Assembly: GCA_049509455.1 (NCBI GenBank)
Contig: JBEKZX010000010.1
Span: 1-41,805, forward strand
Direction of reading: 5' to 3'
Length of the DNA: 41,805 nucleotides
Source of the DNA: Conexivisphaerales archaeon
Lineage (GTDB): Archaea; Thermoproteota; Nitrososphaeria; Conexivisphaerales; DTJL01
The notes below the pieces were generated by a model that saw only the letters and a list, made by a program, of their open reading frames with translations, was not told where the DNA came from and did not search any database. Below, piece after piece: positions 11,670 to 17,172 of this stretch. A program made the translations under genes and the position numbers. The stretch's first letter is position 1, and each line of letters starts with the position of its first letter.

Positions 11670-12794
11670 TTGGAGCAACCGAATGACGAGGGCCTCACCG
11701 ACGCTGAGGCGAACAGATATGCCCGCCAGATCGTCCTCAAGGACATCGGCTGGGAGGGCCAGATCAAGCTCAAGCGTTCTACTGTACTAGTCGCCGGCGC
11801 AGGAGGCCTCGGCTCTCCGATTCTGATTCAGTTGGCTCTCCTTGGAGTCGGGACGATCAAGATCATAGACAGGGACATCGTCAGCGTCACCGACCTCCAC
11901 CGCCAGTACCTCTACAGGGAGTCGGACGCCGGAAGGCCGAAGGCGGAGGTGGCGGTGAAGAGGATCAGAGAGATGAACCCCTCGATCAAGGTGGAAGGTT
12001 ACGCGGAGTCACTCTCTTACGACAGGCTCCTAGAGCTCCTTAAGGGTGTCAACGTCGTCATGGACGGCCTCGACGACATGAAGGGGAGGTATGCCCTGAA
12101 CAGGGCCGCCTACAGGATGAAGGTCCCCTACATCTTCTCTTCGGCGCTGGAGATGTACGGCAACGTATCCACTATCATCCCGGGCGAGACCCCCTGCCTC
12201 GAATGCTTCCTTGGTGGGGTGAGCGACGACGGCGTCCGGAAATGCGCGGTCGTCGGTGTTCATCCTTCCTTGCTGGGGGTCATAGCCGGCGTCGCCATCT
12301 CGGAAGCCGTAAAGATAATTACAGGGGCGAGGCCTTCGCTGGCTTCGAAGCTTCTGCTGATCGACCTCCGGCACTTCAGCTTCGACTCTTGCGAGGTCAC
12401 CACCAATCCGAACTGCCCGGTTTCCGGCAGCGGCACTAACCTCACCGACATACGCCCGCCTCTCCTAGAGAGGGCATGCGCCAGAGACGGGAGCGGGACC
12501 TACTTCGTCAACCCAAGGAGGACGCTGGATGTGGATCTCAGCAGGCTCGACGCCTTCGCCAGGGAAAAGGGCTACGCCGTGCTGAGCGAAGGCGACGTTT
12601 TCCGCACGCTGAGGCTGGACGACCTTTACGATCTGAGCATCTTGAAGAGCGGCACAGCCATGTTTAAGGTGAAGAAGCCTATCCTGGACATCGATGCAGC
12701 AGAAACCAGGATGAAGGAGCTCTACGAAGAGATTGTGGAGGAGGGCCTCTCCGTGCCGTGGAAGGAGTATGTAGCCTCCCCCGCGCAGGGCTGA
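11670..12794 (+). CDS. moeB: HesA/MoeB/ThiF (E1-like) adenylyltransferase with C-terminal extension, copy 1
   Basis: RYARQ, GAGGLG, DRD..S.TDLHRQ, CLEC and catalytic-Cys CAVVGV; TTATAAAT about 38 bp upstream. Confidence 0.9.
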   Translation: MEQPNDEGLTDAEANRYARQIVLKDIGWEGQIKLKRSTVLVAGAGGLGSPILIQLALLGVGTIKIIDRDIVSVTDLHRQYLYRESDAGRPKAEVAVKRIREMNPSIKVEGYAESLSYDRLLELLKGVNVVMDGLDDMKGRYALNRAAYRMKVPYIFSSALEMYGNVSTIIPGETPCLECFLGGVSDDGVRKCAVVGVHPSLLGVIAGVAISEAVKIITGARPSLASKLLLIDLRHFSFDSCEVTTNPNCPVSGSGTNLTDIRPPLLERACARDGSGTYFVNPRRTLDVDLSRLDAFAREKGYAVLSEGDVFRTLRLDDLYDLSILKSGTAMFKVKKPILDIDAAETRMKELYEEIVEEGLSVPWKEYVASPAQG

Positions 12795-12898
12795 AGCCAT
12801 GAAAGAGAATAAACGAAAGATATATTAGAATTACAGGGGGTCGGCTGAATGTGAACGCTGCGGCTTCCAGACACACGACTTCAAGGAGGAGCAGGACG

Positions 12899-13144
12899 AT
12901 GCAGATACATGTGCACTACTACGCCGAAGTGAGGGAGCTGGCAGGCCTGTCAAGCGAGGATGTCCGGCTGCCTTCCGGCTCCACGACCGTCGATCTCGTC
13001 GGCCGGGTTTTGAGGCTCCATCCCGACCTTGAGGAGGTCCGAGAGATGACCCACGTCATCGTCAATGGCACCATGGTCACCACCAGCCCCGTCCTTCACG
13101 AGGGCGACACCGTAGCCCTCATTCCTCCGGTACGCGGCGGATGA
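12899..13144 (+). CDS. moaD: MoaD/ThiS/SAMP ubiquitin-like sulfur carrier
   Basis: 81 aa beta-grasp pattern (YYAEVRE, VNG, EGDTVALIPPVRGG) with C-terminal GG; AGGAGG RBS upstream of ATG 12899. Confidence 0.92.
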   Translation: MQIHVHYYAEVRELAGLSSEDVRLPSGSTTVDLVGRVLRLHPDLEEVREMTHVIVNGTMVTTSPVLHEGDTVALIPPVRGG

Positions 13145-13237
13145 AAGCGGGAAGACCTCTCTGGGGGCCATCTCGAGGTCGAGGTACCCTTATAACGGCG
13201 AAAGCCTCTTCGAGACAGGGACTAGTGCTACTGATAG

Positions 13238-14356
13238 GTGACGGTTGAGGAATCCCTTTCTGACTCCGATGCCAACAGGTACTCACGCCAGATTGTCCTC
13301 TCTGATATCGGCTGGGAGGGGCAGCAGAAGCTCAAGGGCTCCACCGTCCTAGTAGTCGGGGCCGGAGGCTTGGGTTCACCTATCCTTGTTCAGCTCGCAT
13401 CCATGGGTGTCGGCTCCATCAGGATTGTGGACAGGGACATCCTCAGCGTCACTGACCTCCAGCGCCAGTACCTCTACAGGGAGTCGGACGCGGGCCTGCC
13501 GAAGATAGAGGCCGCCCTGGTCCGCCTGAAGGAGATAAACCCGTCGGTGAAGGTTGAGGGATTCGCGGAGAGCTTGACCTACGAAAGCATGCTTGAGCAC
13601 CTCAGGGGCGTCGATGTCGTGCTGGACGGGCTGGACGGCATAAGGGCTAGATACGCGGTGAACAGGGCTGCCTATGAAATGAAGGTCCCCTACGTCTTCT
13701 CTTCGGCGATCGAGATGCTCGGCTCCGTCACCACGATAGTGCCAGGGAAGACCCCCTGCCTGGAATGCTTCTACGGTGGCCTCCAGGAGGGCTCGGTACC
13801 AACCTGCGCCGTTGTAGGCGTCCACCCTGCGATACTCGGGGTCGTCGGGAGCATAGCAGTCTCCGAGGCGGTCAAGATAATGACGGGGGCCGAACCATCT
13901 CTTTTGTCCAAGCTGCTTATGGTGGACCTTCGCGACTTCAGCGTCGACACGATAAAGCTGAAGGAGAGGCCCTCGTGTCCCGTATCCGGGAGCAGCAGAA
14001 GGCCCACCAAGGTCTCGCCCTTCCTCATGGAACACTCCTGCAGGAGGGATGGGACAGGCACCTACTTTATCAACCCCAAGAGGGTCCTCACGCTGGACCT
14101 CGAAAGGCTGGATTCATATTCAAGTCACGAGGGGATACCGATCCTGAAGGGTAGCCCGCTCTTCCGCACGTTGAGGCTGGACGACGTCTTTGATGTGACT
14201 ATCCTGAGAAGCGGAACGGCCATCTTCGCCGTCAAGAAGCCCATCCAGGACATCCACGCGGCTGAAAGAAGGATGAAGGCCCTGTTCAGGGGAGTTATGG
14301 AGAAGGGCCTGGGCGTAGGCTGGGACCAGTACGGGAACCCGAAAGCACACAGTTGA
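13238..14356 (+). CDS. moeB: HesA/MoeB/ThiF (E1-like) adenylyltransferase with C-terminal extension, copy 2
   Basis: Colinear paralog of 11670-12794 with the same motifs and its own TTATAA at about 13190. Confidence 0.9.
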   Translation: MTVEESLSDSDANRYSRQIVLSDIGWEGQQKLKGSTVLVVGAGGLGSPILVQLASMGVGSIRIVDRDILSVTDLQRQYLYRESDAGLPKIEAALVRLKEINPSVKVEGFAESLTYESMLEHLRGVDVVLDGLDGIRARYAVNRAAYEMKVPYVFSSAIEMLGSVTTIVPGKTPCLECFYGGLQEGSVPTCAVVGVHPAILGVVGSIAVSEAVKIMTGAEPSLLSKLLMVDLRDFSVDTIKLKERPSCPVSGSSRRPTKVSPFLMEHSCRRDGTGTYFINPKRVLTLDLERLDSYSSHEGIPILKGSPLFRTLRLDDVFDVTILRSGTAIFAVKKPIQDIHAAERRMKALFRGVMEKGLGVGWDQYGNPKAHS

Positions 14357-14508: not shown

Positions 14509-14638
14509 TGCGAGGGGTGGGGTTTGAACCCACGAAGGCCTACGCCAGCGGATCTTAAGTATGGGCACCCTCCGAACGGGCACCGCCCCCTATGGTCGCC
14601 ACGGTGCGCTGGCTTTGGCCAGGCTTGGGTACCCTCGC
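14509..14638 (-). tRNA. tRNA-Leu(TAA) with two non-canonical introns (14592-14614 and 14561-14582)
   Basis: Removing both introns gives an 85-nt cloverleaf: acceptor GCGAGGG/CCCTCGC, anticodon arm GCGGA-CTTAAGA-TCCGC, long variable arm, T arm GTGGG-TTCAAAC-CCCAC. Both introns fit BHB motifs. Confidence 0.92.
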
Positions 14639-14662
14639 AGCTTTGCCCAAGAACGAAGTCGT

Positions 14663-14722
14663 CTATTAAGCGTTTCAGGGACTGCCGCCTTTCGCAGCCA
14701 CTCTACGAGGTAATGATTTAAA
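14663..14722. promoter_or_regulatory. Divergent TATA boxes for the two tRNA genes
   Basis: CTTAATAG (minus, 14663-70) about 25 bp before tRNA-Leu; TTTAAA (plus, 14717-22) about 29 bp before tRNA-Ile2. Confidence 0.6.
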
Positions 14723-14750: not shown

Positions 14751-14824
14751 GGGCCCGTAGCTCAGCATGGTAGAGCGACCGGCTCATAACCGGTCGGTCA
14801 AGGGTTCAAGTCCCTTCGGGCCCA
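14751..14824 (+). tRNA. tRNA with CAT anticodon, most likely tRNA-Ile2 (agmatidine type)
   Basis: 74-nt cloverleaf GGGCCCG...CGGGCCCA with loop CTCATAA. The G1-C72 GGGCCC acceptor is that of archaeal Ile2; it lacks the initiator A1-U72 pair and GGG/CCC anticodon stem. Confidence 0.9.
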
Positions 14825-15118
14825 TGTAATCTTGCTATTCTTGACCATATTCTTACATATCATGCGCAATTCATCTCTTGTTGTGACGGGTCCTATACAC
14901 ACGCCCTGAAGCGGCGAACAACTGGATTGGCCGCAATACTGGAATCCGTTCCTGGGCGGAATCTGTATCCAGTTAGAGGCGAATCCCCAACGGTGCGGAC
15001 TCGCTTCTGGGACTATCTATTGGTGCTGTAATCAGGATCTCCTGCTTGTAGGGAGGGCGTGATGGGGGGGAGGAGCGGTCAAATACCAGAGGCCCTACAG
15101 GCAAGGCTGGTGCTGTTC

Positions 15119-15550
15119 TTGAAGTGGGTAACAAGAGAGAAGGCTAAGGTTGACCGAATAGCGTGCCCTTGGCTGATCAGGAACTTCGTGGACCATGACG
15201 CGGAGTTCCTTTTCGTCCCCGCCGACAAGGTCCTTGAAGTGGCAAAGAGCGAGGGAGCAATCCCCTACGACGTCAGCGGAGTGGAGCTGGGGCATCATGG
15301 AGACCAGTGCAGCTTCGATGCGATCGTTCAGAAGTACGCGGTCAAGGACCCAGCCGTCCTAGAGCTCGCCAAGGTCGTGCGAGGGGCCGACACGGCCAAC
15401 AGGAACCTCACGCCAGAATCACCAGGCCTTAACTCGATTGCGGAAGGCTTCAGGGCCATTACCAAGGACGACTTCGACAATATGGCGAAGCAGTTCTACG
15501 TATACGACGCGCTCTACGCGTTCTTCAAGGCGAAAGCAGCGAAGGTGTAG
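15119..15550 (+). CDS. Chromate-resistance ChrB C-terminal-domain (ChrF-like) protein 1
   Basis: KWVTRE..KVDRIACPWLIR.FVD.DAEFLFVP, CSFDA and IVRGADT-like VVRGADT. Start set at TTG 15119 (MKWVTRE). Confidence 0.88.
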   Translation: MKWVTREKAKVDRIACPWLIRNFVDHDAEFLFVPADKVLEVAKSEGAIPYDVSGVELGHHGDQCSFDAIVQKYAVKDPAVLELAKVVRGADTANRNLTPESPGLNSIAEGFRAITKDDFDNMAKQFYVYDALYAFFKAKAAKV

Positions 15551-15553
15551 CCG

Positions 15554-16003
15554 TTGCTCTGGGCGACGCGTCATGAGCCGCACCTGGACAGGTGCGCCTC
15601 CGCCTGGCTCATCAAGAGGTTCATCGATCCCGACGCCACCTTCGCGTTCGTGGGGAGGGACGAGGTCCCCCCCAGCGGCTCGATCCCGTTCGTGCTCCCT
15701 GGGGCGGAAGTGAATCCCGTGGAGGGGGTCTCTACCTCGTACGACGCCCTGGTGGCCAAGCATCATGTGACGGACCCCACGGCCCTGAGGATCGGGGCAA
15801 TCATACATGACTATGAAGTGGACGCGGGAGAGGACGTGGCGAGGACTAGCTTCAGGGAGACGGCGGGGGTCTTCAAGGTGGTCAGAGGCATCGCTAGGAC
15901 ATCGAAGTCCGATCAGGAGACGGTGGCCGCTGCGCTTAGGGTCTTCGACTCGTTGTATGCCCAGTTAACGGCAGAGGCCGCGCAACGGGATGCGTTGAAT
16001 TGA
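15554..16003 (+). CDS. ChrB C-terminal-domain protein 2 (divergent paralog)
   Basis: WATR..PHLDRCASAWLIKRFIDPDATFAFV N-terminus; SYDAL and FDSLY match the family pattern. Confidence 0.82.
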   Translation: MLWATRHEPHLDRCASAWLIKRFIDPDATFAFVGRDEVPPSGSIPFVLPGAEVNPVEGVSTSYDALVAKHHVTDPTALRIGAIIHDYEVDAGEDVARTSFRETAGVFKVVRGIARTSKSDQETVAAALRVFDSLYAQLTAEAAQRDALN

Positions 16004-17172
16004 AGGCAGACGCCAAGTTCTTTTACGCCTTCTGCGTGGCGGGTTGCTTAGCCATACTCAGCTCGACGATGTCCAAGAACCCCATCTTGCCGTTGCTCTC
16101 TCAAAGCCTAGGTGCCCAAGGAGCAACGCTGGGTTTTATCGCGGCGGCCTCCACCATCCCAGGAATCCTCGTGAGCCTCCCCGCGGGCTCCCTTTCCGAC
16201 CTTATAGGGAGCAGGAAGGTGATGTGGTTCTCCGCAATCGTCTTCGCCACGGCGCCCTTCCTCTACCTCCTGGTGACGACGCCTCTGGAGCTAATCATAG
16301 TGAGGTTCTATCACGGCTTCGCGACGGCGGTCTTCGTCCCTGTGGCGAACGCCGTGATCGTAGACCGTTATCCCCAGCGCAAGGCGGAGAGGCTCTCTCT
16401 CTTCTCGTCGTCGACCCTCGTCGGGAGGAGCCTGGCGCCCTTCCTCGGAGGGGGGATCCTCCTCTTGACGAACAGCGACTACCACGACGTGTACTTGGTC
16501 GTGGGCGCTGCGGGCGTGGCAACGCTTGTAGCCATCTTCGCGGTCTTCTGGCGGGAGACGGACGTCGTCACAACCGCCCCGCGACGGAGCTTGGGGCCCC
16601 AGCTGCGCTCCCTAGCGGGAGATCTTCACGTCCTAGTGGCCAGTTCGGTCGAAGGAGCGCAGTACTTCGTCTACGGCTCCTTCGAGTTCTTCATGGTGGC
16701 ATACGCGCAGAAGGTGGGGCTGGGCGTGGGGGCCATAACAATAATCGCGGGGGTGCCGATAGTGACGGTCGTCGTTTCAAAGCCTGTGATGGGCGGGCTC
16801 TCTGACCGTCTCGGTCGCTTCTGGCCCATAACGGCAGGCCTGGTGATGACCTCGCTTCCCCTGTTGGTTATCCCTCTCACTTCGTCGTTCCCCATCCTTC
16901 TGGTGACCTCCCTCCTCTACGGCTTCGGCTTCTCGACGGCCACGTCCTCCACCACGGCCCTAGTCTCCGACATCTCGGGTAGCTCGGCCTCGGGGTCGGC
17001 GATGGGCTTCCTGGGCACAATAATGGACATCGGACAGGCGCTCGGCCCCATCGTGACTGGATACGTGGTCGCCACGTCAGTAGGATATGTTGGCGGCTTC
17101 TGGCTTCTGGCTGGAGCCCTCCTGGTCTTCGCAGCCCTCTTCACCCTTGCTTTCATCCCACGACGGCGATAG
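16000..17172 (+). CDS. MFS transporter
   Basis: 390 aa, about 12 TM helices, G.LSD..G.RK motif repeated (GSLSDLIGSRK, GGLSDRLGRF); 4-nt TTGA overlap with the upstream gene. Confidence 0.93.
   Translation: MKADAKFFYAFCVAGCLAILSSTMSKNPILPLLSQSLGAQGATLGFIAAASTIPGILVSLPAGSLSDLIGSRKVMWFSAIVFATAPFLYLLVTTPLELIIVRFYHGFATAVFVPVANAVIVDRYPQRKAERLSLFSSSTLVGRSLAPFLGGGILLLTNSDYHDVYLVVGAAGVATLVAIFAVFWRETDVVTTAPRRSLGPQLRSLAGDLHVLVASSVEGAQYFVYGSFEFFMVAYAQKVGLGVGAITIIAGVPIVTVVVSKPVMGGLSDRLGRFWPITAGLVMTSLPLLVIPLTSSFPILLVTSLLYGFGFSTATSSTTALVSDISGSSASGSAMGFLGTIMDIGQALGPIVTGYVVATSVGYVGGFWLLAGALLVFAALFTLAFIPRRR

Follow-up and report, generated by a model that had tools for sequence, protein, structure and literature searches.

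A single-copy tRNA-Leu(UAA) gene with two short BHB introns at non-canonical positions in a Conexivisphaerales-like archaeon

Anatomy of the gene and its two BHB motifs

We analysed a stretch of 41,805 nucleotides (the window; contig JBEKZX010000010.1, positions 1 to 41,805 of the forward strand) from the genome of an uncultured, Conexivisphaerales-like archaeon of the class Nitrososphaeria, a lineage whose older name is Thaumarchaeota. The assembly is a draft of 140 contigs (2.05 Mb, 58% G+C) that is 95.5% complete. On the minus strand of the window, positions 14638-14509 hold a tRNA-Leu(UAA) gene. Its precursor of 130 nt, minus two introns at bulge-helix-bulge (BHB) motifs, gives an 85-nt class II tRNA. 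The gene is flanked by a ThiF-family gene and by a divergently oriented tRNA-Met gene, and no open reading frame of 80 amino acids or more overlaps it. The parts of the gene and its putative promoter are listed below in the order of transcription; intron positions follow the standard tRNA numbering, including the D-loop positions 17a, 20a and 20b.

14661..14676, minus strand: putative archaeal promoter, a purine-rich BRE-like GAAACG followed by a TATA-like CTTAATAGAC, 38 to 23 nt upstream of the mature 5' end
14615..14638, minus strand: exon 1 (24 nt), with the acceptor 5' strand, positions 8-9, the D-stem 5' strand and the D-loop to A21
14592..14614, minus strand: intron 1 (23 nt) at position 21/22, relaxed BHB (HBh' type)
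14583..14591, minus strand: exon 2 (9 nt), A22-G30, with the D-stem 3' strand, G26 and the anticodon-stem 5' strand up to its fourth base
14561..14582, minus strand: intron 2 (22 nt) at position 30/31, strict hBHBh' motif
14509..14560, minus strand: exon 3 (52 nt), with A31, the UAA anticodon loop, the anticodon-stem 3' strand, the long variable arm, the T arm, the acceptor 3' strand and A73

When the three exons were joined in silico, ARAGORN recognized the 85-mer as tRNA-Leu(taa). In its fold the acceptor stem has 7 bp and the anticodon stem 5 bp, the variable arm is long, the T-loop reads TTCAAAC and the discriminator base is A73. The product thus has what is expected of a class II tRNA-Leu: the arms of the cloverleaf, a 7-nt anticodon loop with U33, a T-loop of the GTTCRA type, the long variable arm and A73. 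CCA is not encoded at the 3' end of exon 3. A preliminary description of this DNA had proposed the exon and intron boundaries, the tRNA-Leu(TAA) identity with its anticodon, and the intron positions 21/22 and 30/31. All five segments proved exact in coordinates and length on the minus strand, and identity, anticodon and positions were borne out both by ARAGORN on the spliced 85-mer and by collinear intronless orthologues (described below).

The unspliced gene, however, escapes common tRNA finders, as the preliminary description had anticipated for standard annotators. ARAGORN missed it with or without its intron option and called only the neighbouring tRNA-Met at 14751-14824; the same tRNA-Met gene was the only one reported by Rfam at the gathering threshold. 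A permissive scan with the Rfam tRNA model (RF00005) recovered only the 3' half of the gene (14509-14549, 14.2 bits).

We considered other ways in which the locus could be organized. The three exons are collinear, on one strand and within 130 nt, which is not the arrangement of a split or permuted tRNA gene. Self-splicing group I or group II introns do not account for the inserts either, which are 22-23 nt long and matched none of the Rfam intron families even at E values up to 10. Finally, treating both inserts as one big intron would remove exon 2, which is strictly conserved, and yields no tRNA.

To describe the splice sites, we used a BHB model with a 4-bp central helix, 3-nt bulges cut after the second base, and flanking helices, and scanned the 130-nt precursor for every possible pair of cuts. 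In this exhaustive scan, intron 2 was the single top candidate: all four pairs of its central helix (GGGC/GCCC) form, the bulges are GGT and ATA, and the inner and outer helices are 4 bp each. Intron 1 has three of four central pairs (GGCC/GACC, with one C.A mismatch), the bulges AAA and ATA, the 4-bp inner helix GCCA/TGGC and the outer helix CCT/GGG. Bulges and a central helix are therefore present at both introns, in relaxed form at intron 1. A strict motif (hBHBh') has both flanking helices and a relaxed one (hBH or HBh') has one; in this precursor both helices are present at both introns. The helices, the bulges and the C-A mismatch agree with those given in the preliminary description for both introns, as does the double use of the G-run of exon 2, G23-G25 being common to both full motifs.

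The score of intron 1 tied with those of several chance BHB candidates in the same precursor, and its motif by itself is therefore insufficient. We take the comparison with related genes and intronless orthologues, beyond the motif, to decide the placement of this intron. Moving both intron-1 cuts by +1 would leave an identical product, but the central pairs then fall to 0/4, and only 21/22 suits the BHB geometry. In the minimum-free-energy fold of the whole precursor (-58 kcal/mol) the core of intron 2 is present and the motif of intron 1 is absent. The intron-2 central helix is also part of the RNAalifold consensus of ten orthologues.

Related genes with and without the introns

A DNA search of 40 relatives returned full-length matches in the archaeon's own genus, in its own family and in a second family of the order, and a pattern scan for intron 2 across 185,579 species genomes added further genes. 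We thus obtained 36 distinct Leu(UAA) and Leu(CAA) genes with introns at the same two sites, from Conexivisphaerales-like Nitrososphaeria that include two related families. In these genes the exons are conserved, and the introns diverge in sequence and in length (12-25 nt). Exon 2 reads AGGGGGCRG in all 36, between diverging introns. Within the genus the exons are 100% identical in five genomes, while the introns differ in both sequence and length.

Pairing at the splice sites is conserved as well, with covariation in the central helices. In the 36 genes, the central helix of intron 2 was paired in register in 99% of cells, compared with at most 56% when slid; for intron 1 the corresponding values were 72% and at most 56%. 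The third central pair of intron 1 covaries, occurring as C-G, T-A and A-T. The outer helix of intron 2 was kept in every gene. At intron 1, an inner helix of at least 2 bp was found in 31 of the 36 genes and an outer helix in only 13. Because the relatives mostly retain the inner helix only, we classify intron 1 as a relaxed site of the HBh' type.

To see how far the arrangement extends, we sampled 201 genomes evenly across the class. The two-intron pattern was present in 8/8 and 7/8 genomes of the two families, and was not found in the other twelve families, which include 17 genomes of an intronless family, by this exact-pattern search, which may miss diverged exons. Seven genomes of a sister family carry 85-nt intronless Leu(UAA) genes. 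Two of these were checked; they scored 49-52 bits with Rfam and were called tRNA-Leu(taa) by ARAGORN. No gap is needed to align the intronless orthologues with the spliced product, to which they are identical at 75-77 of 85 bases. Their collinearity therefore fixes the intron boundaries independently of any motif.

The same two intron sites occur in the Leu(CAA) paralogue of the same genome (contig C53:49105-49234, minus strand), which becomes tRNA-Leu(caa) on splicing in silico. The T-loop of this paralogue is TCCGAAT, with a C at the normally invariant U55, where all relatives have TTCGAAT; the C may be a real variant or an error in the consensus of the metagenome-assembled genome. Another genome of the family (G006) has two copies of the two-intron Leu(UAA) gene (C1:413250-413363 and C15:7358-7475) with introns unlike in sequence, a duplication that could reveal how fast these introns diverge. 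A complete genome of 1.59 Mb from the order (G010) likewise has the two-intron genes for both UAA and CAA.

Each of the two sites is also found occupied on its own. In two genomes from another family of the class (G040 and G036), the single intron of Leu(UAA) is 19 nt long and lies in the D-loop, at 21/22 or immediately beside it; 30/31 is unoccupied. Conversely, genes of Vulcanisaeta, Thermofilaceae, a Sulfolobaceae isolate and Marsarchaeota-like metagenome-assembled genomes resemble the present ones in the 30/31 site of Leu(UAA/CAA), in a central helix at G25-C28 and in an intron that ends in GCCC followed by two bases, but differ in having no D-loop intron. From the genes with 21/22 only and those with 30/31 only (Vulcanisaeta, Thermofilaceae, the Sulfolobaceae isolate) it follows that the two sites have separate histories.

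Splicing enzymes, use of the tRNA and order of excision

The preliminary description had noted that tRNAs with several introns need a splicing endonuclease of broad specificity and had suggested typing the EndA subunits. The genome encodes exactly two EndA paralogues (PF01974/PF02778), a catalytic alpha and a structural beta, the pair characteristic, at the sequence level, of an (alpha-beta)2 enzyme. EndA alpha (181 aa; L092:1456-2001, minus strand) matches the alpha chain of Aeropyrum pernix (E = 6e-44) and keeps the catalytic triad as Y120/H128/K159. Its K39 and K41 align gaplessly to K44 and R46 of the A. pernix specificity loop, K39 being the equivalent of K44, the lysine of the Crenarchaea-specific loop. 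In A. pernix EndA, K44 is required for cutting non-canonical sites, including a D-loop intron (Hirata et al., PMC3241643). The expected type of enzyme is thus encoded, with the specificity-loop lysine in alpha. EndA beta has no catalytic His, with Pro in place of His125 of M. jannaschii.

The A. pernix pre-tRNA-Thr system (PMC3241643) is similar to the present one in its D-loop-region intron and in its alpha-beta enzyme with the Crenarchaea-specific loop, the present system being known from its genes. It differs in the beta subunit, which here is nearer to the homotetramer subunit of M. jannaschii than to the beta chains of Crenarchaea. Reviews count Thaumarchaeota with the lineages that have unusual introns and alpha2-beta2 enzymes (PMC4090602). 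A gene for the RtcB ligase is also present, and the EndA beta gene (L093, minus strand) lies immediately downstream of it; the two look co-transcribed. The rtcB gene itself (contig C108, L094:1498-4221, minus strand) contains an in-frame intein of ~430 aa, with the Pfam Intein_splicing match between RtcB profile positions 54 and 45.

We then asked how far the cell would depend on the gene. No second Leu(UAA) gene was found in the 95.5%-complete, 140-contig draft, either by blastn with the spliced product or by a search for an uninterrupted UAA anticodon arm with a T arm. Another intact Leu(TAA) gene, together with a lack of spliced product, was what, according to the preliminary description, would have made the locus a pseudogene. 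The leucine set consists of one uninterrupted gene each for UAG, GAG and CAG, and one gene each, with two introns, for CAA and UAA. The codon UUA, which a CAA anticodon cannot read, is rare yet used, with 584 occurrences in 687 long open reading frames (1.9 per thousand codons). The two-intron Leu(UAA) gene is accordingly the sole decoder of UUA found in the assembly.

Comparison with the four other genomes of the genus shows the 16-nt upstream motif unchanged in three and nearly unchanged in one, within a leader that diverges. At an equal distance upstream, a TATA-like box also occurs in other genera of the family. We suggest that the motif acts as a promoter.

Taken together, these observations make it very probable that 14638-14509 is a functional single-copy tRNA-Leu(UAA) gene whose two BHB introns are removed by an EndA of the (alpha-beta)2 type, with joining by RtcB, the usual pathway of archaea at work on two non-canonical sites; that the gene is real and functional is almost certain. 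Transcription from its own TATA-type promoter would give a precursor of ~130 nt plus leader and trailer. The heteromeric EndA would cut both short introns at their BHB motifs, and RtcB would join the three exons, including the middle exon of only 9 nt. End trimming and addition of CCA would then produce the 85-nt class II tRNA that reads the rare codon UUA.

Might the locus instead be a decaying pseudogene, with the inserts as disruptions and no functional tRNA produced? The silence of the standard finders at the locus and the mismatch in the central helix of intron 1 would be in keeping with this. Decay, however, is hard to reconcile with exons that stay 100% identical across the five genomes of the genus while the introns diverge, with an architecture retained in two families and in the CAA paralogue, or with the conserved promoter motif, and it would leave the UUA codons in use without the sole Leu(UAA) gene found. 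We regard a pseudogene as very improbable. Still less credible, to the point of being negligible, is that the inserts stay in the mature RNA, or that one of them hides an alternative anticodon cassette for alternative splicing. The inner hairpin of intron 2 does resemble a stem with a 7-nt loop, but neither intron has a conserved internal sequence or a Leu anticodon loop, and their length (12-25 nt) and content vary; retention, in turn, would destroy the D stem and the anticodon stem. A functional gene from which both introns are excised remains the reading we prefer.

The order of excision is a separate question, since the preliminary description had suggested that the shared G-run might require the introns to be spliced in order. 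The sharing of G23-G25 holds, but an order is not forced. Both BHB cores can form together, in a stable structure of -45 to -47 kcal/mol that also has the acceptor, T and variable arms, and the sole competitor of intron 2 is the outer helix of intron 1, which is not conserved. An obligatory order of splicing is therefore not required.

An obligatory order could nevertheless arise if the 5' part of intron 1 paired with the anticodon-stem 3' strand and the beginning of the variable arm, keeping the anticodon stem open; intron 2 would be cut first, and intron 1 would then refold. Such a helix between intron 1 and exon 3 is indeed predicted both by minimum-free-energy folding of the precursor and by RNAalifold as a consensus for ten Leu(UAA) orthologues of the family (f1), the full outer helices of both motifs have G23-G25 in common, and closely spaced introns may need removal one after another, as some in archaea do (PMC8450103). 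The duplex energies, however, equal those of shuffled introns (z about 0), and the cognate exon-3 targets outscore non-cognate ones in only 20 of 36 genes. In addition, the pairing is weak in the CAA paralogues, changes in the helix are one-sided only, with no compensatory ones, the outer helix of intron 1 is absent from 23 of 36 genes, and the precursor can hold both BHB cores at once. We therefore consider an obligatory order improbable. We also think it unlikely that the UAA genes of the family maintain complementarity between the 5' part of intron 1 and the anticodon-stem 3' strand with the variable-arm start, which would make intron 1 a cis-acting chaperone that orders excision, or, independently of this, that the 30/31 intron of tRNA-Leu(UAA/CAA) is ancient, common to Nitrososphaeria and Thermoproteia, and not a recent gain. 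If the former were true, intron 1 would be a built-in folding guide that sets the order of splicing around the 9-nt exon. With two introns and a 9-nt exon, the gene could serve as a compact natural substrate for testing ordered intron removal.

Known multi-intron tRNA genes and tRNA annotation

Thermoproteales are documented to have tRNA genes with several BHB or relaxed BHB introns (PMC4033280), up to three in one gene (PMC8450103). Those of Pyrobaculum, Thermofilum and Caldivirga are attributed to Sugahara et al. (2007/2008) in citing passages of PMC4033280 and PMC4090602. tRNAscan-SE 2.0 has a dedicated covariance model for Thaumarchaeota BHB motifs, and 107 non-canonical introns are given for the genomes analysed (PMC8450103). 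The statement of the preliminary description that such tRNAs are best known from Thermoproteales is thus correct as far as their documentation there goes, but they are also documented in Thaumarchaeota (PMC8450103), so that the novelty of the present gene was overrated.

The gene resembles those of Thermoproteales in having two short BHB or relaxed introns at non-canonical positions, in the (alpha-beta)2 endonuclease with a specificity loop, and in being missed by simple finders. It differs in its host, which is no hyperthermophilic member of Thermoproteales but a Conexivisphaerales-like member of Nitrososphaeria, and in that the pair of sites is stably common to both UUR-reading Leu isoacceptors across two families. 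With the non-canonical introns described for Thaumarchaeota (PMC8450103) it shares the class of organism, the kind of intron and the problem of detection. Our search of the literature on tRNA introns of Conexivisphaera and Conexivisphaerales found no paper.

The two-intron reading of this Leu(UAA) gene is thus correct but ordinary, its kind being already well known in archaea. Current understanding is unchanged, and a documented phenomenon is extended to one more lineage; the main value of the gene lies in annotation and as a comparative case. Set against the intronless sister family, a pair of non-canonical sites fixed across two families makes a clean comparative set for dating the gain or loss of introns outside Thermoproteales.

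As to annotation, a listing by ARAGORN or plain Rfam would give the Leu(UAA) isoacceptor as missing, and likewise Leu(CAA). On the whole assembly, ARAGORN made 38 calls, several of which were mis-parsed, and many expected isoacceptors were absent. These absences are compatible with many hidden intron-bearing tRNA genes. One ARAGORN call, a 'Leu(cag)' with a 23-nt intron on another contig (C64:20144-20261, minus strand), could have passed for a sixth Leu gene. Its discriminator is G, CCA is encoded and the class II body is of a serine-like kind, and we rejected it as a Leu gene; ARAGORN probably mis-parsed a tRNA-Ser that has at least one non-canonical intron.

The tRNA-Met neighbour of the Leu(UAA) gene (14751-14824, plus strand) has a CAT anticodon and no interruption, and scores 71.5 bits with Rfam. 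It lies 112 nt from the Leu gene in divergent orientation and is preceded at ~30 nt by a TATA-like ATTTAAA of its own. For two genomes of the genus, the ARAGORN parses at the corresponding place are abnormal (88-92 nt), so the orthologue of the CAT-tRNA may carry an intron there. On the other side, 11670-14356 (plus strand) holds in tandem a ThiF-family gene, a ThiS-like gene (97 aa) and another ThiF-family gene, as assigned by Pfam only; they are predicted to encode two E1-like activating-enzyme paralogues around a small ubiquitin-like or sulfur-carrier protein. Beyond the tRNA-Met gene, two adjacent genes with the ChrB C-terminal domain are followed by an MFS transporter gene (15059-17172, plus strand), whose start overlaps the preceding stop.
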